A stretch of DNA of 64,000 bases from Ascidiella aspersa (Eukaryota), in assembly GCA_963924565.1 (NCBI GenBank), contig OZ004611.1, forward strand, positions 17,980,001 to 18,044,000. Direction: 5' to 3'. The notes under the pieces are model-generated. The model had not been told where the DNA came from and did no database searches. It was given only the letters and a program-made list of their open reading frames with translations. Position numbers and translations under genes: made by a program. Of this stretch, positions 31,511 through 64,000 are shown piece after piece; the first letter of the stretch is position 1; each line of letters opens with the position of its first letter.

Positions 31511-31550
31511 TAAAGGTGAATTCAGTTGGCTTGGATATCATTCAGTTGTT
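31200..31550 (+). promoter_or_regulatory. Putative SoxB1 proximal and core promoter
   Basis: CATAAA at 31509-31514 lies ~30 bp upstream of Inr-like TCATTC/TCAGTT at 31538-31547. GATA cores at 31204, 31315, 31331, 31468 and 31534; AP-2-like GCCGAGGGG at 31428; GC-rich block at 31320-31510. Confidence 0.5.
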
Positions 31551-32044: not shown

Positions 32045-32068
32045 AATTTTTTCTTTATTCATTTTCAG
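32045..32068 (+). other. 3' splice or SL trans-splice acceptor in the SoxB1 5' leader
   Basis: Polypyrimidine tract ttttttctttattcattttcAG|G, 155 nt upstream of the ATG. Confidence 0.6.
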
Positions 32069-32223
32069 GTTCTGGAAACCTTTTTTGCTTCAAATCATTT
32101 CAAAATCCTTATAAATCGCAGCGCGATTACCCGTTGAGAAAATCTTTACCCGAAACGAGCACATTTGTCGTCAAGATTGAAGTCTACGCTCGTCACCCCT
32201 TCGCCGAAAATAATCCCTTCAAA

Positions 32224-32520
32224 ATGTTGGCAGTCGATTCGGCGCAAGCCAGTTGGATGCCGGTGCCCTACCCTCCGACCGGCATGGTCCCAAGCAACCA
32301 CCATCTTCCCCCGCCCCCAATGGCATCAACTGGAATGCCAGCCGACGTGAAACCGTACCTCAGTGATTCGATGTCGATCGGCGGACAAATGACGCACATT
32401 TCCCCGCCTGTTTCCCACCATCCGCAGGCCCACGCGCAAAATCACCAGAACAGCTCCAATGCGGCCGCAGCCAAGGCAGCGCAAGAGCAACGCGTCAAAC
32501 GACCAATGAATGCTTTCATG
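32224..32520 (+). CDS. SoxB1: SoxB1 coding exon 1
   Basis: First ATG (aaaATGt) after the acceptor at 32068; 99 codons ending PMNAFM|GTAAGT. Confidence 0.9.
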
Positions 32521-34875: not shown

Positions 34876-36190
34876 ATTGGCTCCAGACTACACATCGAAA
34901 CCCTAGAAGAGCGCCGTTCCCCGAGGTTGTATTCGCACAGGACACGGAGGGATATAAACACTAGCAGCAGCAGTAGCTCTGCGGCAGCCTCGCTTTTTCT
35001 TTGGTTAGCGAACCACCAACTGTGACCCGCTCCCTCGCTCTCTCTTTATATAATCCAATGTAAATAGGAGGCAAAGTTATTAAAGTCGGGCTCAGCAGTG
35101 CTGGCTCAAAGAATCGACACATTCCAGCTTTTTGTACATAAGCCACTGTCGCATATCACGTCCTCACAAAGCAGATCGTTATTGCAGCCTGCTTGATGCA
35201 TTTCGTTTTATCAATCAGCCTTCATGGCTCTTAACTTTTCGATGACACCTACGATATAATTATCGATATTGTTTCGTTCATGGTTCGTATTTATTGCTTG
35301 TTCTTTTATTGCTTTTACCAGTAACACATCGGAATTGCATATCTATCTTCAAGCCACACTGTCCCACTATTTCCTCTATATAACAGTAGCACCGATATAT
35401 TGCAAACGGTCTGATTTTCGAAATAGGTTTGCCTATGTAGTGACGAATTCTGCCGTTGTTATTAGTCTCTGCATATAATACACATTGTCGCATGATCAAG
35501 AATTGTATTAAATTCAAGTGTCTGATCATTTACGCTTCATTTAAATTTAGATTTCCAATAATATATAAGTGGAACCAGAATGTTCTAGCTAAATTTGTTC
35601 ATTATTCACTTTGATTATTATTATTCTCAAAAAAGAATTTTATGTTTTTAAACTGTAATACAAAGATACTCCAACTGCTTCAACGATAAAAACTAAAAAT
35701 GCCAAATTAAATGCTTCAAGATTTCGTTAATTTTTCGAATTTACGTATTTATTTCTCGCTCACTGTAGCACATTTTTGAAACTCCCATCCCATTTATTTC
35801 ATTTTGTGATTCAAACGTACTCTGTTTTTTGCCGTTTTCTATTTTATTGTGTCACCATCATTTGTGACATTGCTAACCGTAACAGAGCGCTTTTCGTATC
35901 ATGGCGATTTTTGGCTTTCGGATAGTTATTTCGTATGCCCTGGTTGGCACGAATTTGACTTGATGATACGAATCAGACATCCAAATTCTGTTTTTGTTAT
36001 TTACGCACGGATTTTTTTTTGAGCTTTTGCAAAAACAAACCATGTTTTTTACGTGGGTGAGTTTCTTCTAAATATTGCTTTAATAATATCCCACACTTTT
36101 ACACGATACCGATTTTCTGTTGTTGTTTTTGTGCTGTTTTATTTGCTGTCGAACAGCGGTAGTCGATTATGGTAGTGCTGAAATAAAAAT
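34876..36190 (+). other. Probable SoxB1 3' UTR ending near AATAAA at 36182-36187
   Basis: U-rich sequence after the stop codon. The first AATAAA I could find is at 36182; ATTAAA variants occur earlier. Confidence 0.5.
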
Positions 36191-42100: not shown

Positions 42101-44158
42101 AGTTGATTTTGGTTCTTATTTTAATTGATAGTGCTGACAAGGGTTTACAATGGGCGAAATATGAAATGTGGTACTTCCATACGCTATCTAGCAAATTCTG
42201 AAAAAACAAGCGAATCGGAAACGATTATGAGGTATCATACTTACGTAATGACAAAAACCCACAAAATATCGAGTTATTTCCGAAAGGATACCAATCCAAA
42301 AAATATTTTTAAAATTCAAATAAGAAGACTATTGGCAATTAAAAAAAGTTAACACGGTACCTGTATTCTCACGAGTCACACTGAAACCTAATACAGACCC
42401 AATATCGTCACATTGCAACGAATAAAATCGCATTGCATTCACATTATTCACCATTGGAGGAAAATGGTTGCAAGGGAACCATATAAAGACAGCGTGACTT
42501 TAAAGTCTAAACAAACCCGGGGGGTCAGACAGACAAGCACCCAACCCTATAACGTCCCACACACTGGGTGATATTCTCCTTATGTGCTCAAGTGGTCGTG
42601 CCCAACTGTTCCTATAACCACGACACATACTCGCGTGCTTAAAATGGAAACGCCAGAAAACATTAAACTTCAGTTTACTTTTCATATGGTCGATTATGTA
42701 AAAGCTCGACAAATACACAAAAATGTAAAGCAACCAAGTCTACTAATTTTTTTAAATATAGTCCATAATTTTCTTTATTTAATTAATGCAACACTTAGTA
42801 GGACAATAAAAACAAAATCGGTCTAAGATAAATTCCATCTTAATATTTTAAACAAGTTTACTAATTTTGTTACAATTCGCAAAAAAACTCCCAGCGACTT
42901 TTTTGTTGCCATTCAAAAGGGTTAAGTGTGGCCAGCAGTCTGCCACGCTTTCCCGTCGCTGCTGTTGACACATAAACGTATCAAGTTTCTCCCGTTATCA
43001 CTGCACCATGTTCATCAGGTGTGTGGGAAAATTCTACAGATCGCTTCGCAGAGTATTGTGATCCAACTCGATTTTTGCCGCAGATACCATCGCATTCCGC
43101 GAATGGCCCGTGTTGATTTTGTTAGAGAAATTTAATTGGTTTAAGAATAATTTTCTTCTCTAAAAATGATGAGATAAATATATTTGCCTATCGATTATAA
43201 GTTTTTGTCGGAAGAACCTACAACACATAATTCGTTAAAATATACATCAGGTTGGCTCTCAAAAGAAAAGTGTAAGATAACTAAAGTAAGTGGTGAGCAT
43301 TTGAATATATACATATAAGTATAATTGGGTTGGTAATTTGATGATAAGAAAACATAAACCGGGAAACCAATATAATTGTGCATGCACACACGGGTTTACC
43401 CAAAAGTGTAAATTATAAAATCGCAACCAGACCAAGTTTTCTCTTTTAAAAGAATACGGTGTTTCATTTCTTTGTAGCGGCGTTAAACGCAGCTTGTCTT
43501 TGTCCATGTTATTATTGGATGCATTTTATTTATTTATTTTAGATTTTTAATATTTTAATATTCTTTAATATTTATTTGTAGGGATAAACTGATGACCCAT
43601 TTATTTATATGGCAAAATGCATATTCATAAAAACACTTTTAAACCTTGTTGACTGATTTTTGTTCCAAGCAGTGCGCTTCTCAAGCTATGAGAATCTGTA
43701 TTGGCATGATTATTTTAATTTGTGTTCATATGTGTTTAAGGAATATTACCCATTTCAGAACTTGTGTCACAATTTATGCGGACGACGAGGTCCAACTTGA
43801 ATAAATAACCCATGTTTTGAGTAGAAACAAAAGAGCAATATATTTGGATAGTTGGATGAATAGATCTTTGTTCAGCTGACGATTAAAACAATCCACAAAT
43901 GCCGGGCGTGGAGGTCTTTTAGCAGAATTAGCGACGTGATCTCGGTAGTAAAGTACGTGTTTCGCTTAGGCGATATAACAGTGCTCGTAAAGCGCAGCGG
44001 TAAACCCTTTGAAGTCACAAATGAGTGATTTCCTTTGGCGATAAACGTTACGATCGACTGTTTTATTGGCGACCGTACTAGACATGGGAATTCTGCATTC
44101 CTGGTCGTAAAAAGCAACAGACGATGCATGTTCAACGACACTGATGGATAATGTAAAC

Positions 44159-45178
44159 CAGTGGTTTTTAACCTGTGGTACACGTACCACTAGCCTATAG
44201 CAGTGAACGAAGCTTTTCTTGGTGTCATTCTACATTTGTCATAATATTTCAGGGAGTGGAACTGTTGTTTCTGGTTAAGGTTTAGTTCCTTTTCAGAATC
44301 CGGTTAAGTTCTAGCTTCGGTTCGGAGCAATTTAAAAGTTCCGTTCAAGCTCCGGCTCGACCTACCTTGTTAAACAACCGGTTCAGAAAGTTCCATAAAA
44401 GTAACTGGCGTTAAACCAAAACTGTAGGTCAAAAAAGTAAAAATATAATTATAACTTGCTTAATCTATGTTCAATTAAGTATTAAACAAACAATCAGCCC
44501 AGTTCTCTGAACAATAAACGAGCAACGTTTATTTGAATAAACATGTTTTTTATTATTTTTCATGCTGCTACAGCGCATATTACATTTTTTCATTGACAGG
44601 ACATATATGGTTTATCTACTTTTTTAAAGTTATCTCTTGTAAAGACATTTTATTACTTTTTTATCACAAATATTCCATAACTGACTATGGAATGATAAAA
44701 ATCAAGTCAAGGAATCAAAGTTAAGTTGTCCAGAGATTTTTTTTATATATTTATCGCCAAACCGGCTCGTTGAAATCTCACTGTTCAGGTTAGGTTACCC
44801 CAAGCTGTTCATAAAGATCCGGTTCGGTTTTGGTTCCACTTCCTGTATTAAATCGATCTTTGTAAGCCAGAACGAAATTTTCTTTCTTAAAAGTATCTGA
44901 CTCCAACTGAAGAGTGAAAAACAAACGACTCTGGTTGCACAACAATTGATAAAGATCGAACGAAGTACGAAACTTAAAAAATCGAAAATCAACTTGTTTT
45001 TATGTTCCTTAATAAATATTGTTTACTCCTAAATGCAACAACGGTTTCTTATTCAAATAGATACTGTTTCTATTTGTTGAGTAAATATATGTATGATGAA
45101 ACCATAGTAAAATACGCAGTGAAAGTAGTGACAAATAAAAGTCACGTGGTTCTAGCGACAAAAAGTTGGGAACCACTG
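44159..45178. mobile_element. hAT-type MITE with a nested second element (~44250-44845)
   Basis: Termini CAGTGGTTTTTAACCT and AGTTGGGAACCACTG; TSD ATGTAAAC/ATTTAAAC (7/8). The inner element is bounded by CAGGGAGTGGAAC / GTTCCACTTCCTG and carries (c)cggtt(c) repeats. Confidence 0.75.
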
Positions 45179-46683
45179 ATTTAAACCATTCAGGCACCAT
45201 TCCTTAATGTTATATTTTACATGCAAAAGAGAGTTTCCTAGAAAATGAAAATAACTGTTCATTGACATAGGATAGTCTGTAAGATTTAGTTCGTAGGCCT
45301 TAGGATGTCGCAGAATTAGTTGTGGAATTTTTCCCAAAAATGTACGACACCAGAATAACACATAGCATTAATATTTATTAGGTTCGCGTGCTATCGAAGT
45401 GTCGATTTTATGTGCCTACGCTTCGTATCTAATGTACCGACCTACAATTAGTCGAAATGAGGTTTTATCCTGTGTTTGTCGGGCGTAGCAAATTGCCAAC
45501 CGGGTGCCCAGTTGCCCGTGCCAATCGTAACGGACAACAACGATTTGCCATAAATGTTTAATAGCATTTAGATCGGAGCTTAAAATTACTGTTTCATGAA
45601 TTACTATAATGGTCGGTCTGCATGGATATGTGTCGTGTGCCGTATCGTATAGGTACTTAAAAAGCCGATATTCTAGCGGCGTCTTAATTTTATTTTATGT
45701 AAGTGCATGGTAACCAAAATTTTACTACTTTATTCTGTATGGTGTAAATAAAGTTGTTGTATGAAAAAAAAAATAAAGTTTGTTTAGTTTCTCTATTTAA
45801 GCAATATATTTGATTGCACAGTTGGAAAATAATACACGTTGATCTACAGGCCATTAACATTGTAAGTAATCATGAAAGCAAGTGTTTTTATTAGCAATAC
45901 TCTAGGTTGTACTTACCCTTCATAACAAGTTACTTTCGTTAAACCAACTGAAAAAATGCCACGGTCAATGACGTTGGCCGTACAATCTCGCTCCGGATAA
46001 CCTTCCCTTTGCCACACGAAGGTTTCCAGGATGCGACAGCCGACAGGGCATAAGGCGGAAACAGAGTGTGGCGCTTTGATCCGCGATAAATATTAATAAA
46101 GGGATTTCCCGTTTCCAAGTGAAATGCAATTAGTAGTTGTTCATTTGAAATAGCGAGGCGGCGTACATCTTTATTCTTCGCTCCTTAGCCACGTTTAGTC
46201 GCAATTGCAACAATCATAAGATTAGCTGCTGGCTTGACCGGTGCCATTTAGCAAGCCTCATTACATATTTATCAGACCTCGAACAGCGCTGTTTTTATCT
46301 GCCTCTGACCGAAGAGAATTTGATACAAGCGGAGTTTCAAATACTAGATGGTCTGCTATTATCAAGTTGATTGGTCAAGTGGTCACGCAAGTTTGATTCA
46401 ACGGAAAAGAAGGTTGCTGATCATTTTCCCCGAATAAATAGTTATAAACAGTGTAAAAATCATTCGATTTGTCTCCTTTTTCTAATATTAATTTTACCCT
46501 TACAAGTTACACTACTTTTAAATAACTTTTTTTAATTTTTTGAGTAAAAAGAAGATAATTTTGTTTCAATGTTAGCAGTTAATCAAAATTTGCTGTAAAA
46601 TCAAAAATTTTAAGTATTCAAAGCAAGTGGCTTATTATATGTTGTATGCTGAATATCCCAAGATACACGAATCCATTATATAG

Positions 46684-46706
46684 TTTTTTTTTTTTTTTTT
46701 TTTTTT
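46684..46706. repeat. Poly(T) tract
   Basis: About 23 consecutive T. Confidence 0.85.
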
Positions 46707-47022
46707 ACGTTGCGATTAAGTCGCTTAAATTGTGACGTATTGTGGGCAGTATTTCTGACCAAGAGTGCGATTTTTAGAATCTCTTCCCAGCTATATATGA
46801 CCGAAATAAAACGGTCGAATCATGTTTTCCAACCGTTATGCTGGCGTGAGCGTGTCGACGTAAATGGGCGAGATACTATGCCTGACGTAATGTGAAATAT
46901 GTGCGCAACTACCTCTGATATAGATCCAAAAATACGGACAAACTAACAACACCAAAACACCAAAACTAAGGAAAAAGTGGAAAATATGACAGATTGTAAA
47001 AATTATTACATTTGTATAAAAG

Positions 47023-47130
47023 TAGGGCTACCATACGTCCTCATTTAAGAGGCCTTGTATTCTTTTAAAAGAAAAATGAATGGTTTTCCCCAGAACACTG
47101 AAAACACCCAAATGTCCTCCTTTTATATTG
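47023..47130. mobile_element. Terminal fragment of the same GAGGACA MITE family
   Basis: About 100 bp colinear with the reverse complement of 9214-9313. Confidence 0.6.
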
Positions 47131-50100
47131 CCCTTTTTGCTTATCTTTTTAAAATTATTTTATTTTCATGTGACGTTTCAGTATGATAGATCTATATTTA
47201 AGTCAACTAATTTTTCAGCGATAAAATGAGTTGTAATCATTTTGTTGTCAATGATTCATTTTTTTTTAATAAAATGTAAACAATATACACATTTAATCCA
47301 CGTGGTTTGTCTTTGTTTTCGTGCTGCGATTTGATCACGTTCTTTGCTAAACCTTTATAAATGGCGATTTCTAAAAGTACGCAAAAATCACGTTATACTG
47401 CTCAAATGGTTTGGTGATGGATCGCTTTTGGCGGTTGTATAATTTGCGCATAGTCTCCATGGAGATGCAAAAGGTCGGGAAACTGGCCGCAAACATGTTT
47501 TTAGAAGAGTAGATACAATATTCTGAATTTTCGTACTGCACTACACCAAAGCATGACATACTATACAAGTTAAGCGTTCATTAAGCAGGTGGCTGTAGAG
47601 GTTCACCCCGATACTCTATTGTACCTTCTAAGAGCTACTTGATTATTTACGCGGAATGTAACAATTTGTGTTTTATCTTGTAAAAAAACGAATCAAACGT
47701 CGTTCTGTTTTCGGAGGTAATGATAAAGGAACAAATCGTCAATGTCTTTAGGTGTGATAGTTCGAACGTAATTCGTCAGCTCACAGAAGAAGCACATTTT
47801 CAACTTGCCTACAGAAATAGGGATTTTGTCGGACATGGAGTTGGCATCCTGCATGACGAACGCGGATGGTTCGAGGTGCGAACGTATCCCGTATTTACCC
47901 GGGAATTAGGCGCACGCCGCATCACGTTCTTTCTCGTAAAGTATAAACAAGGAAAGCTAACGGGGAGTGGAGGTACGGATCGGAGAGTCAGTCGATGTCT
48001 TGCCAAAAAAATCCTAAGCGAAGAGAACCCAGCCCAGGCCAAATATTGATTCGGAATTAATAGATGTGACAGATTTGAAATGCGAGCTGGCGGGACGGCG
48101 ATATATCAAAGCGCCCAGCGTCGGGCGCCGTCGGCCAAGGCAAATAAGACAAACACACATCGGCACGAGAAGGTGCAGCCGCGAAACGTCGTTGGCGATA
48201 GTATTTGCCAGGCATCGGCGTTTGACCGGCTCAATACACACCTTGGCGTATTGCGACGTCTTTTTTTCCCGCTGGGGTTGGCCTTTGGGTGCGCTTCTGC
48301 TGACGTCAATGGTTGCAGTTTGCGACAGATCCGCGGAGCCTTTTGAAGGTGACGCCGACTGTTGACACAAACTTGTTCCATTCTTTCGTCGCCAAGCAAA
48401 AACGCATAAGTCCATTGACGCGCGCTGAATATGTCAACTATTTAAATGTTCATTTTCGTTTTACAACGTTTTTGGTGATATAATTGAGTATCTGGCGCGA
48501 AATTTATTTTGGAAGACAACTATTTTTCATACATTATGTGGGGCAATAAATCATTAAAACAGCTCATATTTATAAAAAAATAGTTTGATTCAAGTTCAGC
48601 TTGAGCAGAAAAATTGCCAACGACGATTTCAATGTTTGTTCAAGATAAACATTATAAAACGGTTTATGGAAGTTCATTTGCTTTAGATCGCCGTGTCTTA
48701 TATCGAAAAAAATGTATATGAGAGTCGATAAAAATAGACTGACAAAAATACCAGAGTAAGTTCGATTGGTTTTAAAGAGCTTTCTGGACTTGTGCCATTT
48801 GAAATTATTTAAATGAACCCTTTGCTCAGCATTCCATTCACAACGACCGTCGCTCTGATGAAGTCTAACGTTGAGCGAGTTAATCTCGAAAAAATAAAGC
48901 AAACAGTAAATTCCGGTCACCATGTTGAAGAAGAGAAAGTCAATTAATTGGCAACCGGATGATGTTGGTGCGACGTAATTGGTTTGCGCTAAGGCAGCAA
49001 GCAGATGTTTGCCCTCTCAGTTTGACGAGTAATCGTACAAACACTCGACTTCAAACGAAGCGAAACCGAGATTCGGAGATGTCCATATTGACTAGAGAGT
49101 GGGTGAGAGTGGTACCTAAATGTGTATGTGTGCTTGTATGAACCCTATAAAAGATGTTTGGCGAAGGTCAAAATGAGCTTTTAGCTGTTTTTCATTTAGA
49201 TTTTATACACCTGGGAATAGGAGCCAATGCTATATTAAACTACTGTATTTACCCAATAAAACCATTTTGACATTATTATGTAGTTCTTCTGTTTATATAC
49301 ATAACCCTTGATTATCACGCACAAGTGGTAAAGAATGTCACATATAGGCGATCTTCACTTTTGCTTTATAACTACGTTTACACTTGTATTAATGGGTTTG
49401 AAAATGTCTTGTTAAGGTTTTATGGGTATTTTTGTCATATGAAGAATTGCCCATAGTCCTGCTTTGTTTTAATAAAAAATAAGGTTTTTACATAACAAGA
49501 CAGACTTTTAAAGTAACCCTTACACGATTTACGTTGACGCTCTGTCTTTCTGTTGGTGCAATTATTTGCGTGTCGAAAAGTGTCGAAATTATGAGATTTG
49601 GTCGCATATAAATTGTTGACAAGCAAACATCCACTTGGCTCCCGGCGCACTTCTAACCTTACCAACCAGCCACCAATCACACTCTGCTCCAACACAGCAC
49701 CACTTCACTTCGCCACCATCAGGAAGGTCGCGACGGGTTGGCTGTTGTCAATGATTAACCAAAGAGTATGTAGGTAGGCTGGGTCGCGCGCGATCAATTT
49801 AACAGTCGTGGCGGGCGCGGGACGATCAAAAAAACGAGCGATAGCTCATTAAAATCCCGCCCCTGCGACAGGCCGGAGCGCGAGGTTTGCTTTGCCTGGG
49901 CGAAAGATCTGCACGCGCAGGCTTCGTCGCCATTTGAGCACACACTCTGTTGGATTCTGGTTGTTGGCCAAAGGTGTGTTAAAGGATTGACCGTTCTCAA
50001 TTTTGCCCGAAATTGTTGCTGTTCGCCATGCTGGATCGATTTGATCTTATAAATGAAACACTATTTATTAAAGAAATGTTTTCTTAAGACTGCTTTGTTT

Positions 50101-53100
50101 ATAAGTGAAACCGCAACATTCATTCGGCAGCTTGACCGATTTATTTACTACATTTTCCTATGTTAGAGCTCCATTGCTGTGAGAGCACATTTTGACTAAC
50201 CACATAGTGAGAGGTGGGCAGTGTGGAAGTTAACTAGTTTAGAAATATGACAGATTTTTTGTTGTCTACATCAAACACAAACAAGCATTCATTTAATTTT
50301 TCTATCCACTTTGTAGTGGGTTTAAAGAGCTGACCGCTTGTTTTAGTTTCTGCAATTTGTAGTTTAGACAACCATTTCTGTTTAACCAATAGCCTTTAAC
50401 CGGTGTATTAAAACATAAACGCATATCACTGAAAGGATTCAATTACCAACTTGGAAACTGTCTCATTATGTAACCGCCTTTAAAATGTTTTTAAACTTTT
50501 ACCTTCGCGAATTCCATCATTCTCAACTCAACAGCTGGCAGCCTAAATCGGGTTTCGTGACTTTACACCGCAATAGGGTTTTCGAATTACCGGGTTGTGA
50601 AGTTTAAAAGATCGCGTGTGAAACGATGAAAATAGGAAGTATTCACATACAACAGAAAATCCTTTGCAAGTCGTAATTGTGAGATTGAATATTTTAAAAC
50701 TCGAAATTGGTATTACGTTTTTTTCTTACTAAGTAAAGTGTAACATTTTTCTTGAAATGTTTTTCTGGTGGGCTAAACAGTTACAAAACATTTATGATAA
50801 CTGCATTTTCTAAAAAAATCCCTATGGTGCAAAAACAGGTTTTGTGGCGGGTAAAATTGAAAATGCAATAAAAACCTCACTGAACAAGTTTTTGTGCGAT
50901 TATATCTGACAGATAAACTACTTCACCGGGTGGAATAACATCGGTACTCTAAATGTCATTGCGTGAACAACAGATTTCTAAGTCTTATTTAGTTTACGAT
51001 GGTACACTTGAAGCATAAACCTTGCGGAAACTAGGCGTTGGTAGCTTTGCCTGTTTTCCCTTCTTTAAGCGCAGAGCAAATCCCGAGCCCAAATAACTTG
51101 AAAGCGCCAAGGCGGTCGTCGCCTGTGCCGGTAATGATGTATAAGCCGCAGGACCCCCCGCACTCGCTGGCTGCCATATTTATCGCGAGGCGCGCTGTTT
51201 TCTAGCTGTGCTTACGGGCGCATCCAAGTTAGCGCAAGACAATGCGCACCCGCCGAGCAGACGAAGACCACACAATTTTGTGCGGCCCCGTTTCTGTTGA
51301 TAACTGGCGCTTTACAGTTATTGAAACACGATTGGCGATTTTTGAAAAGACCTTATTAAACTTTTAAAAAGTATTTATAAATTGTTCCTGTTTCCGTCCC
51401 CAATTTGGCTAATTTATTTATCAAAAATGGTTGGGCCAATTTTGTGACCATTAAAATATTCAAGGCATACGTTTTGCTGTGCATCTTTGCAATTGTCAGT
51501 ATGGGTATAGTTAGTGAATGTATCTTACATTTTTTTGCGCTTAAAGCGAATGCAAACCTAACGATTTCAGCGAACGACCAGCAATATTTCATTTAAAGAA
51601 TAGATGGACATTGTTATTGCAGGTCACAATACAGACGAATTGTTTGGCCGCCTACCAGAGTTGTCTTACGTAAATTTCACTGCCTGTAAATAAAACAAAC
51701 AATTTTCAAACTTTAGAAAAGTATCTGGCCTATTTTTGAAATATGCTTAAGGAATTGAATTAAATTTACATATCATTAAAATATTAAAATGTTGGTTTCT
51801 ATTATTAAATATATATATTTCGTCCTAAATGAATAAAAACAAGATATTATAAATAGTTTATGTATCAGTTACAAAAGCGTAAAAATACCATTTTAATTGG
51901 TGTAAAAACACTAACATCAAAATAACGTTTTAAAGATGGCATACATAAAACAACTGTTAAAAAAGATATATTTTAACTGTCCCATGGCATTAAAAAATAA
52001 GCCATGCATCTCTGTGGTGGAAATTCACGTTCGTCCTCTATCTTTTGTCCTGCAGCCATCAAAGTCTACTGACAGCCTGGGAAGCGAATTCCCGTGCAAT
52101 GACACACCACACAAGGACATAGAGCATAGTTGAAAAGGATCCATAGAAAGTCAAAACAAGGCCCTCTTCACAGAAGCCGGGCCTTTTATTCATCGGATCG
52201 GGTAAAAAAGCGTAGCGAGCCAGTTAAATCTGGTCGCTTTGTTAAAGCTTTTCAATGCGATCCCCCACACCACCACTACATACTATACTGTGCTACTCCG
52301 ATGTTAGAAAGATCCCTTTGTGCCACGCGACTGTCCCATTGATGCAGCATCACACACAAAAAGCTGGTGCTCCTTGTACGACGGAGGCGTGCTGGAATAA
52401 TGGAATACAGACAATGCGGAGAGGGCCCTCGCAAGCCGACTGTGTTACGAGGCAATGGTAAACTGTAGGCGGCTGCTGGTCAGAAACAATGCCTTTGAGG
52501 CGTCACACACTTTCCAGGAAGCATTGAATCACCTTTTATTCTGTCGCAGCAAGTGATATCGATTTGAGCGTTCAGTAAGCAGCAGCACCGACAGAAACAA
52601 ATTAAGGTAGAAAAAGCAGATTTTCAAGGACTCGGGAGTAATCATAGATCTGCTTAGTTTGATATTTTGTTAGGTTTGATAAGTCAAAAGTGTAATTACC
52701 AAAGAAGACGACGAAATTAAAGCGTATCTTTTTTCAAGGCAGAACGCAAGATACTTTTACCAAAAATGTATTTTGCTTTTCTACAAATTCAAGTATATTC
52801 GAAGAAATATTTTCTAAGCTGATATTGAACTTATGATACATAGCAATTGATATTTTTTTCAAATAACACCGATTTTGCTTTATTTAAGTTTTTGTTTCAA
52901 AATAATATAATAAACAAAATGGTGTATCTTCAATTTGATATACAAATATGTGCGATAAAATACTTGATATGGTTTGAAGCGTTACCATTACAGTAGCACG
53001 GAAAACAACAAATCAATCCCATAGTTTTGCACTAAACAAGATTTGTAGAATTTGTTAACGTATAGAATAGATATAGTTTTTATTGCGTACATTTGGCCGG

Positions 53101-54129
53101 TTAAATTTATTGGTTTTATTGCTTGTACTGAATAATAAAATCAACATAAGATAATACCAAACGATTCGTAGCCACACAAAGGTAGGCCTATATAGGATAC
53201 AGCGAAGTTTTTTTTAAAAGTTTGTTACGATATGTGAAAAATCGCAGTTGTAAAATGGCGCAATTAACGTTCGAAATTGCACAGGAGAACCAATGGCTAG
53301 TTGCGGCTCTTTACCGCCAAATGCGTTTAGTGGCTATCAGAAAGACGAATAAAATGGCCATAAGCGTTGAAATCGTGCGTAGTTGATGGATGTGACAGTA
53401 CAAACAGTAGAATGAAGCTAAAAGCGATATTGATGGAATCAATTTTCCGAGTGCAAACTGAGTGAAATCGCTTGTCGATTTTTACCTTTTTACCAAAGGT
53501 TTGGGCTTACAAAGGGCTTGTTTACATAATTTATTTTGACCTTTCGCAATTTTTAATTGCCGCCTTTTGGTATAACATCAACATATATGGTAACACAGTT
53601 TACTCACTATCAGGTGTTTATAATTTATTACTTTTAAATTTTAACACAGTATTTATATCATAAAAAATATGAAGAGAATCGAAGTTCGACGTATAAAAAG
53701 AAACAGCTGGGCAAACAAATCATTCTGTGTAAGTAAACTTTGTCCCTTTGTTAAAAAGTCCCCTACAGCAGCAGTGGTTTTTCTTACAACGTGAATAAAA
53801 AAACTTTGTCGGAAATATTGCCTTAAAAAAATATTTTTCTTGAATAGACACTAAGTTTTAAAAATAATTTTTATTTTATTCACAATAGACTCAACGTTAA
53901 TCGTCTGGAAATAAGATGTGATTGTCTGATTTATGTTTTTTACGGTTTGGGCATCCCGTAATACAAATTTAATTTCAGCGTTCAGATAAACCACAACAGC
54001 GTTTTTTATGTTGATTTTGTTAAAACTTTTAGAACAACATATATATTGACATTATTAAATCTTTACCCAACCTAAACGCGTCTACCAGGAGATATCCAGT
54101 GATTTTTTAAAACAAAACACACTATCTCC

Positions 54130-54367
54130 TAGGGCTCGCGTTTTAAAACATTTTTGCTCAAGGCTCACTTGATATAAGTAATCGAAACTAGCCCCCTATC
54201 TTAAATTAATATGTTGATAAACACAAATCTTTTACTAAATTTACTGTTAGGTTTAAAGTCGGCCAAGGTTTTCAGATCATCATAAAATGCGCAAAGGCAG
54301 TGAAAAAAGGCGCTTAAAACTGGCAGGCTGCTAGACTTTCTCGCACACACCAGTTAAAGAAGCCCTG
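54130..54367. mobile_element. Decayed hAT-MITE relic
   Basis: Right end tcgcacacaccagttaaagaagccctg resembles the CCAGTTTxAGAAxCCCTG terminus; left end degenerate. Confidence 0.3.
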
Positions 54368-55319
54368 CTATGCTATGCTATAGAGAGTTTGCGCCGCCTT
54401 CATAAGAGCTAATTAAAAGCATCAGGGACACTTGATCAAACACCGGACGCCAGAAAATCCAAATTTGTTACTACGGTGATAAACTGGTACGACTTGATTG
54501 TAAGCGATGACTCAACTTGGTCTGTGCAAAACGCTTTAACTATTGTGATATGTTATAACTTATAAATAAATATCGTGATCACGAGAATTTCGTTTGGTTT
54601 TACTCATATTTTCTTTCTTAACGATAGTAACATAATGTGCAGCACATTTTTTATTCTTTTTTGTTCCAAGCACAAAATCCGCATATATTACCAAAAAAGC
54701 ATATACGGAATCTGTTAAATACGTTAAATAAAACTATATAAAAAAAACAATTCGTTACGCATAATTGAATATTATAATTGCAAAGTTAAAATTCAAAGCA
54801 CGCGGGAAAATACTGTCTGTGGTCCCAGGAAGCAATGCGGTTTGACTGAGCAATGCGTTAATCACAGCGTAATCATCGTTGGAATCGTTTAAAATCACGT
54901 TTTACAAAGACTGTAGTTTCCAACATATGAAACGCAGTAGGCAAAATGTGGTAAACAAAAGCAAAAAAAACAGAGGTTAAACTCATTCGAAATAACTGAA
55001 AGGCTTCTTTTTTCAATTTGTCAACCAAGCTTTTGATAAGTATTTAAATAGGGCACCTTACCTACCACTCGTTATAATCCCCAAGTAGATCAAAAAAGAA
55101 CGCTGCTGGACTTTACCGTATCAATAAATCAGAAATCACAAACATAATATTCAACCCATGGAAAAAATATTCAATGAAACTGTTTTGAGAATACAAGGGT
55201 TTTATAACTGAACAAACCAACGGTAATAGTTAAAAAGAGATAGTATTAAATTTAATTACGTTTGATTTGGCAATATTTTACTAAACAATACTCGGGAGTC
55301 TAGACTCTGCTCTAATTGC

Positions 55320-55370
55320 TTATTCTTTCTTTGGTTTGGGACCGGCGTTTGCATTCCAATAGTAGAGGAT
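55320..55370 (-). CDS. MPDU1: MPDU1 last coding exon
   Basis: tatttacag|ATC CTC TAC TAT TGG ... AAA GAA TAA; 51 nt. Confidence 0.88.
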   Translation of the reverse strand: MLYYWNANAGPKPKKE

Positions 55371-55835
55371 CTGTAAATAGTTTATTTCATTCATTTTAGA
55401 AAAGAAAACACACACACACACAAACAACAACAAAAAACATAACCAAATTTTTATAATGCTATCAAAATAAGTTGTCCTATAATAGACACTTTTTCAAGAT
55501 CTAATGATTTAAATAAGAAAAAGTTTTTGCTTGTTAACTACTTAAATAATGTATCTCTACAATATAATGAAAATATGAGCAGGGAATAACTTCATTACGC
55601 TCAAAAATATAAATTCAGGACAAAACGGTAGAACTTTGTAAGCAACCCTTACTTGAAAAAGAATCGTCCCATTAGCAATTGTTGAAACCACGTAGTTGGC
55701 GATAACCAAGGAGTCTCCGGTCTCTTGAATCGAGGTAAAAATACGGGCCATGGAGCCCAGGAATAAAAGAGATACGGTAATGACTGAGAGCTGGCCCGTG
55801 TGACCGTTTTTGTAATTGTCCAACGCTTGGATTAA
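55320..55835 (-). CDS. MPDU1: MPDU1 (mannose-P-dolichol utilization defect 1, PQ-loop family), last two coding exons; 5' exons not found in the window
   Basis: Exon 55835-55653 reads LIQALDNYKNGHTGQLSVITVSLLFLGSMARIFTSIQETGDSLVIANYVVSTIANGTILFQ; exon 55370-55320 reads ILYYWNANAGPKPKKE*. Together they match the MPDU1 C-terminus (NGHTGQLS...GSLARIFTSIQETGD...YWN) with a di-lysine-like tail. Splice sites are canonical and phase 0. Confidence 0.93.
55653..55835 (-). CDS. MPDU1: MPDU1 penultimate exon
   Basis: ttttcag|TTA ATC CAA ... TTT CAA|gtaagg; 183 nt. Confidence 0.92.
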
Positions 55836-58800
55836 CTGAAAATAAAACAGCAGAATTTAATCGAAAGGCTCCCATAAGGCGTTATATACGAGAAACAATG
55901 TTTTAATTAAGCTTTTTTTGTGACTGATATCAACCTTTTTAAACAAGTAAATGTGACAGCATTCAGGAAATATTTGAACATCATGTAAATGTTGATTCGC
56001 ATTTTGATTTTTTTCTCACTAAAAGGCTTACTGCGGTATTTGGCACTATCGCAAATCTTTATTGCTTGGTACATTAGTTGATAAATTTACCGTTGAAATC
56101 CTAACGATAACGAAGTATAATTATGTAATCAACGTTTGTCTCCACCTAAAATTATACCGTTCACATGGCCGACACTTTACTTGAGATGACCCGATTAATC
56201 AAGTCAACGCAGACCTAAATGACAGCGTCACATAAGGATATTGGTTTAAAACAGGTGCAAAGTGTCGTAAAAAATGCTAGCAAGATGGTTTGCCTTAAAG
56301 TGCGTGCTACACCTTGAAAATTTCGTCATTGCAGCAGTACATGGGTGTCAGGCAACGACGCGAATAGTCAGGACCAATACTCGATGGAAAATTCCGCGCT
56401 AGTAGGTTACCCATCTTCTTGCGGCCTTCGTGCTGTTGCTTTGCCTTCTCAAGTCAAGTGTGCTGTGACCGTGGGGCGCGGCCCGATTATGTTTTTATTA
56501 ATATTCATTGGCCGGAAATTCGATCCGCGATCTAGCGAGCGGCACCGAACCCGATCAAGCAGAACTGGCAACCGGGAGACGCCGTGGGTTACGTCACGAC
56601 TAGTTTTGAATTTCACAAAAAAATTAAAAAAAATCATCTTAACGAAACATGGCAGAATGTTGTTTTTAAAGGAAATATTGATGTATAACATAATGAAAAA
56701 CAGATTCCAAAAAGTGAAAAAAGTAAATAGTATTGGAAGTTATTTGGGAGTAACGGCCAGCCTAATTCTACAACTCTTTATGCGTTGAAGGTTACTTAAA
56801 TACAGCGGCAAATCGTTATGGGCAACCTCGCCGAAGGAAAAAGCGTGTACAAGTGTGCGACAACCCTCGAACTATGCTTTCGAAGATGTCAAGAGCCGTC
56901 GCCGGGGCAAGCTCCGTTGGCATTCGAGGGTCGAAAGATTGCCGCCTGAAACTTGACAGCGCAAGTGACGTCACTCAGCACGTGTTTCGTCTTAGGTTAC
57001 GACGTGCTTGGGCGCGCTAAAAACCAGCGAGGCGAAACGCAAGCGGTGTGACGAGCGGCATACTTTATAGGGGAGGTCGTTATACGGGGGTTGGCAACTT
57101 GGCACAAACCTCGGCGCTTTCGACGTCACAGCAGAGAAAACTGAACAAAAAAAAATTCGCACAGTTTTCAGAAAAAAATGTTTTATACGAACATCGTAAA
57201 TAATTACTATGTTAATACGTAGAAAAGTTGTTGGCTTTTCATTTGTATGTAAAGTAATTACACGACGTATTTATAAGCGTTACTATAATTAACTGTGATA
57301 CTTTTCCGAATAAAATTATGGTAGGTTGATTGACCCTTGGCCTTCCAAAATTTTCATTTTCACTTTTCAGGTACGACGGCATTTCTAGGAGAATTTTGTT
57401 GGAGATGGGAGAAAATTTACCTTCAACATTAGGTCAATAGGCTCTGAAAGCATGATACCACGCAGCGAATAAAATAAGTCGAAATGCACTCGAACAAAGA
57501 AAGGTAGTTTAGTGGCGCCGCTGGCCCTTCGTAATCGCATTACGGCATCGGCGCCACACAAGACGCGCCCGGAAGAGCCCAGGGGCACCGGAGTTTTGCT
57601 TAGCCCGAGATAAGCCAACCCGCGTGCTAAGGGGCCGCGACGTCGGATCTTTCTGTCTATCTATAAAGGCGACCTGTTGTTTTTGGGAAGCCGCGATATT
57701 AAAGCGAGATTATAGGCGAGGCCGACGTGGGAAAGCAAGGGAAACATGGGTTGTTTGAAAAATTCGGTCTTAATAAAGGTGTTGGCACGCGGGTTTTTCG
57801 TATTGAATTTCTTCTAAACGGCGCGTGCTATCGGTTTTTGTAAATAACAACCCAAAAACAACGCATATCTTTATAAGTGAATCTAATCCTTTCGTTTTTG
57901 CAAAACCTTATAGTACAATGTAGGCAGTTTAAATGTCTTTAGAGAGAATATTTTTTCGGAAAAGCATATAACACAAATATTTGTGCTGTACAAGCCAAAA
58001 CAAAATGTGTCGCGATATCATATCGGCACCATATATGCATATAGAAGCTTTCTTTTAACATCTTTTAAGCAAACTAGCAAAAGAAAATAACTCGACTACA
58101 TCACAAGCTAGTGACATAACAGTTTACATAACGTCGCGAGGCCCAGGGGTTGCGGGAGGGGGTTACAAGAGGGACTGTCGTGCGCAAATAAAGGCGTTTT
58201 GGCCGAGGGCTGGGATAAAAGAGCAAGAGAGAAAATAAAAGCGGAGTCAATCCATTATGATAAAAGGTAAGTAAACAACGTCACGCGGCATATCATCACC
58301 ATCACAGGCGTTCAGCGGCGGTGTGAAACACAAGGCCCACTTATTTGTGGCGCTGTTGTTTCAAGCCATGAGGATTTATCGCCGGTCGTAGGGGGCGAGA
58401 TGAGGTTTGTCCAAAAAACGAGGGATTTTATCACCGTCATCTTATAGGTAGGACAGGCCGTTGGGTTCAGTCAACGCAAGGGCTCGACCACGTAAGTACC
58501 CTGGCGCCAAGGCCGGAAAAAGAAGTCTGATGAAATTAAAAAAAAAAGAATAAATGTGCCCCTGAAAACATCCTACAATAATTTGATTTACAACAACGGA
58601 CAATGTCGGACAGACCATTACACACGAACTGAAAAAATTCAATCAAATAGGCAATAAACACCCTTCGTTTGTCTAAACCCATGTGCTTAGATGCGGAAAA
58701 CAAAGTTTGTGCGTTAAAAAAAAAAAACACCAAACTAAAGCGTATTCGTGTAAAAGTACATTTTAATATTTCTTCCTAACATTGTAGACTTCAAACGTAC

Positions 58801-60073
58801 GTACAATACAGCAGGCGAGCAGGTGTTTTTTATAAGGATTGCTGTTGGTGGGTAAGAAAATTCTGTGGCCGGAAATTGAGCCTTTATAAACAACAGGTGC
58901 AATGGCCGGTTTAGTTTAAAACTCAATGCAGATTTATAGCAAGAGTTTGATTTTATAGCAAAAGGTTGTCAAGTAACTTTGCCCGGCCATACTATTTTAT
59001 TTGCAGATTATTTTGTTATGCAAATTAGATGGACTATGAATGTTTTTAGACAAGCATTAAAATGTTTTGTTAATATTGCATTTATGCGCTTCAGTCAAAG
59101 CTTGTTTAGGTTTTCTCTAAAAGTCATGGCACCTCAACTGGAAGAAACCGCAAATGGTGCCAATATGCGTCAAATATCGGGTAGCCCCATAAGAAAATAG
59201 AAGTCAAATCACTAACGGTGGTAACGTAATGGCAAGTTTTGGGGTAGAGTCGTTGATAAGTCCGGGGCACGCTATCCCGCAAGTCCGCGTGCCGATGGCC
59301 GGCAATGATATGTTTGGCGCGTGAGAATTCCGCGCCGCTGCTATTAACTTGCAATCCGAGGGATCAACCTAAAACACAGGGCCAGCCTTCTAATGGGTTA
59401 TTACCAGCACAGCGCAGTTTTGAGCAAATTGCACGCAGCCGAGCTTGTATTGCGACCTTTCGTTAAGGCCATCATTAAATATTTCGGGGCATTTCTGTAT
59501 TTAGGCGAGTTTTTACTTGTTACGCCAGACTAGTTTGGACTTGAAAATCAGGCGATAGTTATCCAATTTTCAAGTGAAGTTGCCCGAATCGTGTAGGAAG
59601 TGGCACTTATTAACGTTGTGCAATTTTTTATGGTAGCTCTTGCATAAGCAGTGCAAGAAGTGGTACTTAGTTTAGAATAATGATGCTTCTGTATATTACT
59701 ATAACTTGAAACTTTTTCAACCCAAAACGATTTTGTTGGGAAACAATTTTGACCACAGCTGTTAAACATATACTTTTAACGACTGTTTTATTTTAGCAGA
59801 AAGGTTAAAGCTTATAGGATGTGTTCCAGGTTCAACACGACTGAACAATTTCCAGTAGACCGGATTTAGGTCGTGTGATAAATGCTTTTATTAGCAATAT
59901 GGTTACGACAGGTCGCGGTAGATTTTGAGGCCATTGTAGTCAAGCGGATGACTTGAGGGTCGAACTTAAGAGAAAAAAATTAAGTTGCGAATTTCCGTTT
60001 TTAGATAGCCCTTTGCAGGTAGTGGTGATTCATTATTGTAAACATCGAAACAAACATACTACTGTCGCTTCAG

Positions 60074-60137
60074 TATAAACTACTATTGACACGAACACTT
60101 GTTTTCATAATATAAACTAGTATTGACACGAACACTT
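60074..60137. repeat. 27-bp local direct duplication (period 37)
   Basis: tataaacta(c/g)tattgacacgaacactt at 60074 and 60111. Confidence 0.85.
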
Positions 60138-60659
60138 TACATTTTGGGAAACTGTATTTCTTGTTAAAAATGCATTTTTAAGAGGAATTATCAATTACAT
60201 TATCAACTTTTTAAACGTTGTTCATAACTCGTGGGCCTTGCTTTTTTCTAAAACGTCATTACAGCTTCAATTTTTAACAGTTGAGGTATATTAGGTGAAG
60301 GTGGGTTTAACGAGCGTAAATAAAAAGTGGTAGAGCCACGCGAAGTTTTCTTAGAAAGGCGTTCTAAATTGTATAAAAATATAAATAAAAAACAAGCTTT
60401 TACAACCTCACTTTTAAAAAAGGATAGGTAAATAGCAATTAACGTCAAAAAACACAAATTACTACATAATTGGCTTTTAAAGTAGTGCAAAAGTTTTAGA
60501 AAGTTCGATTAAAAAAAAAACTATTCCGAGAAAAAACAAATTTTCGTTTACTATTGAAAACAGCTGGTCTTCAAACATTTTTCCGGTCAAACTTTGGCCC
60601 AACATCTCAACACTCGACCAGATCGTTTGAGTTTGTGTCACTCAAGAAACCCCGTTTGA

Positions 60660-61120
60660 CGCATACATGCCAGAGAAATGGGTTTCGTACAGTAGAGTAG
60701 AGCAGTCATACACGATACACGGCCAATTAGCTTCAGCGGTGGCAGTGCGACTGACACGTGCAGAGAAGCCATGCATTGAAGACCAATCGGCCACGGCAGA
60801 TAATGTTACATGGGGCTGGGGGGACAACAAAAGCCCCCGCCCACCACCAGGCGGCTGGGCAAAAATTGAAAAAGCAATCGGGCGTGACCGAAAATAAAAC
60901 CAAAGAAGAAAAAAGGGACAATGGCGGCATGGGATCTACGCGAGGGTGGCTTTGAATGGGGACACGAGTGGGCGCAATATGACGCGCGCAGGGGGGCGGA
61001 AGGGCGGGGGAGGGGCTCGGTGAACAAGCGGCGCGCAAGGCATGACGTCACGCACGGGCGGAGTTGAAAGAGCGGACTTTTTTGCGACACAGCGCCGAAG
61101 CGCATTCACTCAGCACAAAG
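60660..61120. promoter_or_regulatory. GC-box/CRE/CCAAT promoter-like island inside the MPDU1 intron
   Basis: GGGCGG at 60994, 61002 and 61056; TGACGTCA at 61043; CCAAT at ~60723 and ~60783. Confidence 0.45.
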
Positions 61121-64000
61121 CGTTAAAAGCAACATATCCCCATTTAATGCAGTGATAAAAAAAATTTGGCTTTACATGTTGAGGTTGTTTTAATGTACAT
61201 CAACACCTTTTTCAAACACAGGAGCAAGCGTACTAATGTCGGAGACCCCACACGCCGCAAAAATTGCTACATCAATAAGTTAACGCTTGTTCTTTTAGTA
61301 TTTGATATTTACGCTATGTGTAAAATCAGTACCAAGTTAGAGTTTGTTATTTAAGTATTTGCTAGTTTCCTTTCATTATTTTGGACAAGTATGCATGAGT
61401 GTACGATACTCGTGGAGAGTAGAAGTCTTTAAAAAATAAAATAAGGAAGGAAAAAACGTTGCATTTCAATTAGAACTATAGATAGATAGATAACAATTCC
61501 TCGATTTTCATATTAGACAAATTTTAGCGCAACCCTAAAAAGCATTGTTTTTTTCATTTGTTGAATTACCACCATAGCAGGACCGTAAATAAAGTTCACA
61601 AAAGATGAATGCTGTACGTTCGAGAGTCGCAGATTTGCAACCGTTCCATTATTTGGTTATAGTTGTGATAAAATTTAAAAGTGAAAATTAAAACAACGAA
61701 ATATCACGGTCTGTGACCCGTTAACTCACCATTCAAAAAGGGTGTGTTTAAAGAGCAGTTTTCGCAAAACCAGTAAAAAAATCTCATTACAAAATATTTA
61801 AAGTTGTGAAAACTTTCTATCTTGTAAAATCAAAAGAGTAACAAAAGAAAAAGGGCCCATCTTCGAGAACATGGAATTTTGGCGACATTAAACGTATTCG
61901 CGTAAAAAATCTATGTGGTGATCCGCTTATCATTAAATACGCGAAGCTCGGCAAAACGTAAACATTTTCAGTTCCAGCAGGAACGAAGGAAAAGGGAAAT
62001 TGCGCTGTCAAAAGTGTGTTAGTCTTGTAAGCAGGGCGTTGAAGCCGACCTACAGCACATGCGTAAGGAGCCACTTAAAACGGTTTAGTCGCTACTTCAG
62101 TGAAGGAGGGTTTAGCCTCCAGCTATGTACGCCAATTATATGTTTTCAGTTTTTGCGAAGGGTACGATCCTATGGTTTAACGGCCAATGCGTGGCGTTTA
62201 CAAATTTATGGAGATGTATTGGGGCAATAAATAATATCGTCGCGCTGTTTGTTTTTTACGATGGACAACTTTAAATCGATATGCAACGTGTAGAGAGCGT
62301 TTGCTAACATTTATAAAATAGCATATTGGTAAAGATTATACGGAAATAAACTATATTATTTTTTGCCATCCGATGTTGCCTTTCTAAGTATGGCAGCAAC
62401 ATTTTCCCCAAACGCAATTTGTGATGGTGAAAATCACTGACAGTCGGGACAATTTATATTCATTTGCACAAATACTGAACGAGACTATTATGCAATTTTT
62501 AAACGTTTGTAGATGATTCATTGCTAGTTAAATAAAGTCTTGTCTTAAAAAGGTTATCCTAAAATTAAAAATATAAATATACGCATAGCAAACAGTGTAA
62601 TGGGAAATATCATGACACCCAATCATTTCGTGGATATTTTGATTGCCTAAATTTGTGCTGAAACAGTTCGAATATCAAAATAGTTTTTACAACTAAACCT
62701 GTTCGATAAAAAACGTCAGCCTCGATGCGCCCACCGAAGCATTAAGATTTAGAAATAAACAAAAGCGAGCAGAGCCATTGTGACTGTGCCATTGAAAACA
62801 TCAAAAAACTAGAGGATGTCGCGTGCCCAGTGCATAGCGGGAATATTTTTGCGGCGGAGAAAAACTTCCTGTGGACCCGCGGGGTAGACCCGAGGATCCG
62901 TGAGAAGCCTGGGAAAATTTGCAACCCCTACATTCACATAGTCCAGCGAGTGTGTGCGATCAAAATAGCGGCCATTGTGGAAAGAGTTGTTTGAAAACTC
63001 GGGAACAAAAAGGAGACGGGTTCGATTCCCGCACGTTGCCGTTAAAATTGAAGTCCACTTGCTTTTCGGGGTGATGTACTACTTGGTTCTATTCTTACGA
63101 TCGGGGACGAATTTCGGGACGATTACTCGGGTTAGGAAATTTGCACCACAAAATTGGAACCAAATAAAAATGGATGAAAGCACGACCATTGTCTTCGTGG
63201 TTTAGCTGAATCGCTGAAACGAGCTATCGCACGCAACATTGGAATTTCGGGTTGGTGTGGCTATCACTGGAAACCAGTGAAGAAAAACGGAAGCTTTGCA
63301 AGCAAGAACTGGTGAACTCAAAATACATTATTTTAACTGAAGGTAACCAATATACATTTCATAGACAAAAAGGAAATTGAAAGTATTTTTTAAGACAAAT
63401 ACGTCGACAAAATCGACATAATCTTTTTAAGACAACCTATTTGGCTTTGGTATTCATTTTAGGAAGAAAATTATGCATAAGGAAGAAAATTATGTATACA
63501 ATAGTAAGAAAACGCCGGGAAGTTTTGTTTGGGTGTGCAGGTTAGGCAACTTACTTCTGGCGTATTTTAAAATTACTAAACATATGGCATGTTGGGTGTT
63601 GGAATCCAAATATTTATTTTTGAAAATAATAAAAAAAGAAATAATACGGCAAAATAATGTTTATGACCTTAGAAAATCGCTATGGCTTAATCTTAACGAA
63701 ATTGTTTTTGTGTCGCTTTCTGCATTTTAAAATATTTTGATATATTATATAAAATGTATTAATATATATTTTTAATAAAATCACCCACTAAGCCAACAGA
63801 CTAAAATCGGGTTCAATGAAAAATGAAAGATTTATTTTATGTTGTTAAATAATGTTACACTTTTGTCATGAAAAGCACCAATAATCCTAATATTGCATCT
63901 ATATATACCCGAATTCTTCTACAAAAAAATTTGCTGGCCAGTACTAACTGCTGAATTTCTGCTGTAGTTACAGAACTAGGCTAATTTTCGAAAAACCGTT

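Follow-up and report, generated by a model that had tools for sequence, protein, structure and literature searches.

The 64,000-nucleotide window analysed here (contig OZ004611.1, positions 17,980,001 to 18,044,000) comes from the ascidian Ascidiella aspersa, which is organism A in the sequencing-run labels and has a genome of 309 Mb. It holds the gene for SoxB1, a developmental transcription factor, adjoining the 3' part of MPDU1, a non-developmental gene; this is the kind of pairing predicted for a genomic regulatory block. The two genes lie tail to tail, with stop codons 20.4 kb apart. Our main subject is the fifth intron of MPDU1, in which seven non-coding blocks are kept as faithfully as the MPDU1 coding exons. 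The comparison was made with contigs of a different, related species (organism C, run X8), placed at 80% likeness. Coordinates above 64,000 or below 1 carry the window numbering on into adjoining stretches. The two genes are laid out as follows.

32224..34875, plus strand: SoxB1 (Sox1/2/3) coding region, the proposed target; exons 32,224-32,520 and 33,943-34,875 (protein matches, HMG box, SOXp)
55320..55370, minus strand: MPDU1 exon 7, coding part including the stop codon (gene model; 24 RNA reads continue from exon 6, with loose ends)
55653..55835, minus strand: MPDU1 exon 6, second PQ-loop (protein matches, PQ-loop, RNA depth ~25)
55836..64000, minus strand: MPDU1 intron 5, part inside the window (gene model, tblastn, spliced RNA reads)
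65,248-65,391, minus strand: MPDU1 exon 5 (gene model; aligned in organism C)
65,526-65,586, minus strand: MPDU1 coding exon 4 (gene model; organism C support by a joint)
67,041-67,173, minus strand: MPDU1 coding exon 3 (gene model; aligned in organism C)
67,402-67,467, minus strand: MPDU1 coding exon 2 (gene model; aligned in organism C)
67,861-67,948, minus strand: MPDU1 coding exon 1 (gene model; aligned in organism C)

The MPDU1 model comprises seven exons with GT-AG borders at every intron and an open frame of 241 amino acids. Exon 6 has its best named matches in MPDU1 of Clavelina (80%) and Ciona (75%), and a PQ-loop search located the first repeat of this type 3 kb beyond the window. 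With four ascidian MPDU1 proteins as queries, tblastn placed coding exons at 55.3, 55.7, 65.3, 65.5, 67.1, 67.4 and 67.9 kb and none within 55.84-65.24 kb. The whole of intron 5 extends over 55,836-65,247 (9,412 bp) and ends 1,247 bp beyond the window; its splicing was seen in 16 RNA reads (12 starts, run X11) that omit exactly 9,412 bases, bounded by CT..AC on the plus strand. Introns 1-3 are based on splice sites, the open frame and tblastn, RNA joints being absent among the rows listed. In gene order the introns measure 393, 228, 1,454, 134, 9,412 and 282 bp. Intron 5 is thus 6.5 times the length of the next longest and, set against the 134-1,454 bp of the other five, has the length of a bystander-type intron in a regulatory block. 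An earlier, sequence-only reading of the window had found no further MPDU1 exon upstream of the penultimate one and had named exons within 56-64 kb as an observation that would speak against its interpretation; tblastn, gene model and spliced reads agree that none map there, and the tBLASTn search it had proposed finds the upstream exons at 65.2-67.9 kb, past the window end. The 1,422-bp intron that it reported elsewhere in the window is the SoxB1 intron (32,521-33,942).

A caller that scores 200-bp windows for a guanine-plus-cytosine (GC) content of at least 50% returned exactly seven islands in intron 5, the same seven units of island and AT-rich spacer that the sequence-only reading had described. 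The GC content of these islands is 0.49-0.57, compared with 0.34 in the intron 5 spacers. That reading had called them CpG islands, which in the vertebrate sense (CpG observed/expected ratio, o/e, well above depleted surroundings) they are not, as CpG o/e is alike in islands (1.04-1.43) and spacers (1.15). Since the entire intron is CpG-undepleted, the islands are set apart by GC content only, and they are better described as GC-rich patches.

Alignment to organism C revealed seven collinear blocks of 202-671 bp and 90-97% identity, which coincide with all seven islands (7/7).

56424..56625, no strand: conserved non-coding block 1; 21 substitutions and 3 gaps in 202 bp (island 56,340-56,600)
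56833..57083, no strand: conserved block 2; 15 substitutions and 0 gaps in 251 bp; one TGACGTCA palindrome, one CACGTG
57425..57743, no strand: conserved block 3, the best kept (97%); 9 substitutions and 6 gaps in 319 bp; AP-2-like, GATA and Sox-like matches
58045..58537, no strand: conserved block 4; 24 substitutions and 3 gaps in 493 bp; AP-2-like, GATA and Fox-like matches
59189..59484, no strand: conserved block 5; 25 substitutions and 2 gaps in 296 bp
60601..61271, no strand: conserved block 6, the longest; 62 substitutions and 31 gaps in 671 bp; GC boxes, CCAAT, TGACGTCA and Sox-like matches
62726..63287, no strand: conserved block 7, on the last island of the SoxB1-centred cluster; 46 substitutions and 6 gaps in 562 bp; Sox-like matches

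Together the blocks carry 202 substitutions in 2,794 bp (7.2%; 2.8-10.4% per block), and each has a substitution rate below 15% at p <= 0.037. For comparison, 89 of 867 letters differ in the five listed MPDU1 exon pieces, and at the fourfold sites of exon 6 the figure is 7 of 26 (~27%); 13 of the 20 listed differences in exon 6 fall at third positions (25 differences in the whole piece). The seven blocks are short, highly conserved non-coding regions of the kind predicted for bystander introns, the comparison covering one related species. Blocks 1-4 lie on one organism C contig (2,541 bp) and blocks 5-6 on another (2,536 bp), at a depth of 35-44 over the blocks, the same as on exon contigs; no organism C contig bridges exon and block. 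The spacers do not align, differing between the species in letters and in length (207 vs 249; 341 vs 284), and beyond the blocks there are six organism C pieces of 25-49 bp, visible in joints. Organism C blocks cover 89.5% of island bases but 9.4% of other intron bases, and the overlap of islands and blocks (2,136 bp) was reached in none of 100,000 random placements (mean 843, maximum 1,942). The conservation that the sequence-only reading had expected of its islands is thus found for 7/7. In a control region at 65-75 kb (introns 1-4 plus 7 kb upstream), the longest listed single-copy organism C pieces are exons 5, 3, 2 and 1, with exon 4 found via a joint. The remaining pieces, among the longest listed, are short repeat contigs, mostly in bins with a depth of hundreds to thousands, and none is a non-exonic conserved block of comparable size. 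Run X4, labelled organism B, was considered as a second species and not counted; its short pieces are mostly 98-99% alike at a depth of ~5, and are therefore probably organism A DNA inside that run.

The blocks resemble neither a nested gene nor a dispersed repeat. None of the 58 open frames over the blocks (58/58 searched) matched Pfam at an E-value of 0.01, frame-breaking gaps of 1-2 bases are common, no other RNA joint is present, and Rfam at its gathering score gave 0 matches in the window plus the next 10 kb; a nested protein-coding or known RNA gene was rejected on these grounds. In run X11 the RNA depth is 0-2 in intron 5 compared with ~25 on exons, nearly all of it on the MPDU1 strand, and no cluster of RNA starts or ends was found there in this one sample, of which 6% was read. 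A genome search that skipped very common words found the blocks to be single-copy. The intron 5 region has 22 other genomic matches, all of 43-120 bp, at ~60.75-60.87 kb (one match, inside block 6), 63.9-64.05 kb and 64.7-64.9 kb. A transposon relic or other dispersed repeat was likewise rejected, as there is no many-copy pattern and 21 of the 22 short matches fall outside the blocks. No similarity was found between blocks, and internal repeats are short, chance-level pairs only. Twenty motifs were tested against 500 shuffles, and the one clearly above them was TGACGTCA, with two sites (blocks 2 and 6) and 0/500 shuffles. Block 6 has a promoter-like make-up, and adjoining it at 61.2-61.5 kb there is RNA at a depth of ~2 on the MPDU1 strand and none on the opposite strand.

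The islands of intron 5 belong to a larger group that surrounds SoxB1.

13661..63040, no strand: cluster of 33 GC-rich segments, two of them SoxB1 exons; the proposed span of the regulatory block (GC caller)

Within these 49 kb (13.7-63.0 kb) the caller returned 33 GC-rich segments, as against 33, several of them exons, in the remaining 205 kb of the 254 kb scanned. The cluster stops inside intron 5, and after 63,040 the next GC island is at 79.5 kb. The cross-species comparison of the cluster covered the part inside intron 5. Another seven GC-rich segments form a second, smaller cluster in CpG-rich DNA between -90 and -80 kb.

The CpG content of MPDU1 changes along the gene. From 0.22 over exons 1-3, CpG o/e climbs through intron 3 to reach 1.23 in intron 5; the gene is CpG-depleted from ~66 kb up, and the depletion ceases before intron 5. 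Stably expressed Ciona genes carry methylation in their bodies, while 94 of 103 regulatory genes lack methylation (PMC3827831). From the CpG counts we infer that an unmethylated SoxB1 domain may take in the 3' half of MPDU1. The likeness to the mosaic gene-body methylation of Ciona (PMC3827831) lies in a CpG-poor housekeeping gene body beside CpG-rich regulatory territory; the difference is that the boundary suggested here, from CpG counts alone, would fall inside the housekeeping gene, whose 3' half is CpG-rich. Upstream, depletion extends for 4.5 kb from the MPDU1 start codon (67,949-72,400; CpG o/e 0.42) and ends near a minus-strand donor-like site at ~72,543, noted by eye. This stretch is possibly a long intron in the 5' untranslated region, a trans-splicing outron or another gene; the RNA signal over it is swamped by repeats.

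As regards its neighbours, SoxB1 itself matches best SoxB1 of Phallusia (75%) and of Ciona (61%), and no other Pfam-supported gene lies between it and MPDU1 (92 of 96 picked window frames searched; one weak 7tm_6 match fell below the cut-off). The sequence-only reading had advised looking next door for another developmental target, such as SoxB2. To the right, where Pfam covered 144 of 198 picked frames at 64-154 kb (all those picked from 74-124 kb, few beyond), no rival developmental regulator was found beyond MPDU1 as far as 124 kb, a search in which short exons can be missed. What lies there are two sulfotransferase exons (85 and 100 kb), followed by LRR and IQ exons (126-129 kb). A second SoxB gene, which we take to be SoxB2-like from its post-HMG motif, is not beside SoxB1 but on contig C4 near 16.15 Mb; it has an intron within its HMG box, and another Sox HMG box lies 340 kb off on C4. 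An Fmr1/Fxr-like gene is on the SoxB1 contig near 23.52 Mb and was discarded as a member of the local block, being 5.5 Mb away. To the left (-70 kb to 0; 131 of 152 picked frames searched), Pfam matches were to F5/8, GPS (adhesion G protein-coupled receptor), UIM, CLAMP, PACRG and ALS2CR8, the last at -57 kb, beyond SoxB1, and presumably a CARF-type factor.

Some smaller observations concern these neighbours. About 150 bp before the SoxB1 start codon, a strong splice-acceptor-like site at 32,050-32,070, seen by eye, points to trans-splicing or to a first exon without coding sequence. Upstream of SoxB1, the closest gene identified has F5/8 type C (discoidin) exons on the minus strand, one at 5,119-5,421 in the window and another left of it, and there is a weak collagen match at 6,360-6,662. 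A GC-rich open frame of 1,795 codons that lacks a Pfam match and lies upstream of the GPS motif (the two together at -19.6 to -10.1 kb) is probably the mucin-like stalk of the adhesion receptor. The sulfotransferase exons, at 84.9 and 99.8 kb, are of equal length and cover the same profile range, and a tandem duplication is likely.

The adjacency of SoxB1 and MPDU1 appears to have lasted in animals as distant as spiders and vertebrates. Of four vertebrate SoxB1 ohnologs one, sox15/sox19, is found next to mpdu1 in groups that range from cartilaginous fish to mammals (PMC8244163). For invertebrates, accession numbers, which are often in gene order, served as a proxy for linkage. Both genes are on record for 10 species, and in 7 of these, among ascidians, spiders, a horseshoe crab and a beetle, their numbers lie 1-8 apart; species with one gene on record (Styela, Phallusia, Anneissia, Strigamia, several beetles and bivalves) were omitted. 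These are the pairs, 1-4 numbers apart except in Tenebrio.

Clavelina: CAK8671322/324
Ciona savignyi: H2Y6B8/B6
Uloborus: XP_054724890/889
Argiope: KAF8788930/934
Larinioides: CAL1289012/010
Tenebrio: CAH1369624/630, 6-8 apart
Tachypleus: XP_076323532/531

The partner Sox proteins that were checked carry SoxB1-type HMG ends. For Ciona intestinalis and for Limulus (there with one of the five SoxB1-like records found) the evidence is a shared scaffold or chromosome length only. An ancestral microsyntenic pair is defined by four or fewer intervening genes and retention in four or more major lineages. The direct adjacency in Ascidiella, the close numbers in ascidians, chelicerates and a beetle, and the vertebrate synteny make SoxB1-MPDU1 a strong candidate for such a pair.

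The arrangement resembles the Isl-Scaper and Otx-Ehbp1 blocks (Irimia et al. 2012, PMC3514665), in which a developmental transcription factor lies beside an unrelated gene, one very long bystander intron holds short conserved non-coding blocks, and the pair is retained across distant phyla. Of four predictions that this study makes for genomic regulatory blocks, three hold here; the fourth is that the elements in the intron work as enhancers of the transcription factor gene. The bystander differs in being a small seven-exon gene with a single long intron. The islands also resemble ascidian open chromatin (bioRxiv 10.1101/371005), which is short, GC-rich, conserved between close species and clustered (five or more per 10 kb) at regulatory genes. 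Enhancer activity and contact have been shown for the Isl and Otx blocks, and the open chromatin was defined by ATAC-seq (sequencing of transposase-accessible DNA), whereas for SoxB1-MPDU1 and its islands these properties are predictions. Human MPDU1 is compact and is not known to have a long intron.

The vertebrate synteny Mpdu1-Sox15/sox19-Fxr2 (PMC8244163) likewise places a gene derived from SoxB1 beside Mpdu1 in mammals, reptiles, amphibians, and bony and cartilaginous fish; in the part of that paper available it serves as a within-vertebrate orthology marker, with no regulatory claim, and Fxr2 flanks Sox15 there, while in Ascidiella the Fmr1/Fxr-like gene is far off on the same contig. 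The available text of bioRxiv 10.1101/371005 leaves Sox and bystanders unmentioned and reports that ascidian gene neighbours are often not kept. We found no paper on the invertebrate SoxB1-MPDU1 link; the main text of Irimia et al. 2012, in the part available, has 0 matches for 'mpdu', and its supplement lists Sox blocks and may hold the pair. The string mpdu1 does not occur in the supplements of PMC4729200, PMC8851819 and PMC13012124, a weak negative in that their tables may use gene ids. The intron 5 feature is real and, as a proposed genomic regulatory block, new or at least undescribed.

With a probability of roughly 0.7, we consider the seven conserved blocks to be enhancers of SoxB1, and MPDU1 to be the bystander of an old genomic regulatory block. 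The blocks would be open chromatin bound by developmental factors and would loop over 24-31 kb to the SoxB1 promoter, while MPDU1 would be transcribed through them from its own promoter; the intron 5 part of MPDU1 would be unmethylated and its 5' half would carry gene-body methylation. If the chromosome broke between intron 5 and SoxB1, the latter would be severed from part of its inputs, and relocation of MPDU1 would carry such inputs away. As either event would cost SoxB1 inputs, the pair would tend to stay together, and SoxB1 switches inside an MPDU1 intron would help to explain the lasting adjacency of both genes. This agrees with open chromatin in Ciona and Phallusia, which is GC-rich, conserved within the genus and clustered at regulatory genes, and with the finding that 73% of 49 tested ascidian regions were enhancers or enhancer-promoters, even if the majority of conserved ascidian elements lacked open chromatin in early embryos (bioRxiv 10.1101/371005). 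The earlier interpretation, that Sox enhancers sit inside the housekeeping intron, is supported by the exon-free 56-64 kb, the conserved islands and the recurrence of the pair in ascidians, chelicerates, a beetle and jawed vertebrates (PMC8244163); the enhancer role, the SoxB1 target and a causal part in the linkage are proposals. Its statement that the pair "cannot be separated" was too strong; a single vertebrate SoxB1 ohnolog out of four is described as adjoining mpdu1, and sox15 was lost or pseudogenised repeatedly, several reptiles included, with mpdu1 left in place (PMC8244163).

These losses count against the proposed block, as do several further points. Conservation was measured in one other species against a neutral yardstick of 26 sites; the 80% likeness filter favours well-kept stretches; and the control 10 kb, being repeat-rich and mostly CpG-depleted, is not a matched unmethylated control. 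SoxB1 has ~45 kb of non-intronic flank carrying similar islands, so the islands in intron 5 may be redundant, and a CpG o/e near 1 is widespread in the 254 kb, much of which is likewise undepleted, so that the CpG boundary in MPDU1 is unspecific by itself. Sox-like sites in the blocks are not enriched over shuffles, and the AP-2-like and GATA matches (p = 0.018) are lost after correction for 20 tests. The accession proxy gives no orientation, distance or intron size. In Araneus the two genes are on different scaffolds, its MPDU1 being partial, and RefSeq numbers differ by 165-1,430 in Argiope, Clavelina and Ciona intestinalis and by 12 in Tenebrio; as the GenBank numbers of Argiope and Clavelina are close all the same, RefSeq distance says little.

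Other explanations make different use of the same observations. A role of the blocks in the control of MPDU1 itself, or of a non-coding transcript nested in it with block 6 as its promoter, SoxB1 being a mere neighbour, would suit their location within MPDU1 and the GC boxes, CCAAT and TGACGTCA of block 6; in amphioxus, widely expressed genes have adult enhancers within their bodies, most of which are associated with the host genes (PMC6292497). Against it speak the sparse intronic RNA (depth 0-2, as compared with ~25 for exons, almost entirely from the MPDU1 strand and showing no clustered starts or ends in the 6% of one sample that was read), the lack of an Rfam match, the 2.8 kb of conserved DNA, which far exceeds that of the other MPDU1 introns, and an island pattern that runs on outside MPDU1 to SoxB1. 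We regard this explanation as unlikely. Only slightly less improbable is that the blocks, though part of the SoxB1 domain, act as silencers or as Polycomb-type or boundary/tethering elements instead of activating enhancers, or that they are a late ascidian addition that played no role in the old linkage. Their location right where the island cluster and the CpG-rich domain end, sequence conservation known between two close species only, and the vertebrate losses, which show that the linkage can relax (PMC8244163), all speak for it; the seven separate blocks of 200-670 bp, however, resemble those flanking SoxB1, and most tested ascidian open regions near regulators are enhancers (bioRxiv 10.1101/371005).

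The islands might, finally, be neutral, either ancient repeats rich in GC or cold spots of mutation, and simply be easier to align than the AT-rich spacers. Alignment bias would indeed make GC content and conservation nearly coincide, as they do (89.5% vs 9.4% of bases covered). However, the blocks are single-copy, with all but one of the short genome matches outside them, they share no similarity with one another, and their 2.8-10.4% substitutions compare with ~27% at fourfold sites, each block falling below a rate of 15% (p <= 0.037). This explanation is largely refuted, and we give it very little weight.

Beyond the proposal that the blocks are SoxB1 enhancers, a broader and more tentative view, which we hold to be possible though short of an even chance, is that SoxB1-MPDU1 is a regulatory block dating from the last common ancestor of protostomes and deuterostomes. 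Enhancers of SoxB1, a pan-neural gene, would then have resided in MPDU1 introns for more than 550 million years, their sequence turning over at the same address, and in the 3' half of MPDU1 the unmethylated SoxB1 domain would prevail over gene-body methylation. Among the vertebrate ohnologs, the most divergent, Sox15/19, would be the one still accompanied by the ancestral bystander.

From its internal CpG boundary, MPDU1 is predicted to be a half-methylated housekeeping gene. More generally, the results point to a gene pair, built around a core neural regulator, that is likely to be shared across the Bilateria, and provide seven small, exact candidate enhancers in an animal group in which electroporation allows reporter tests within a day. 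This makes it testable whether enhancers in bystander introns hold ancient gene pairs together, even where gene order has been scrambled as in ascidians, and whether enhancers that occupy the same intron in distant phyla may be alike in function but not in sequence.

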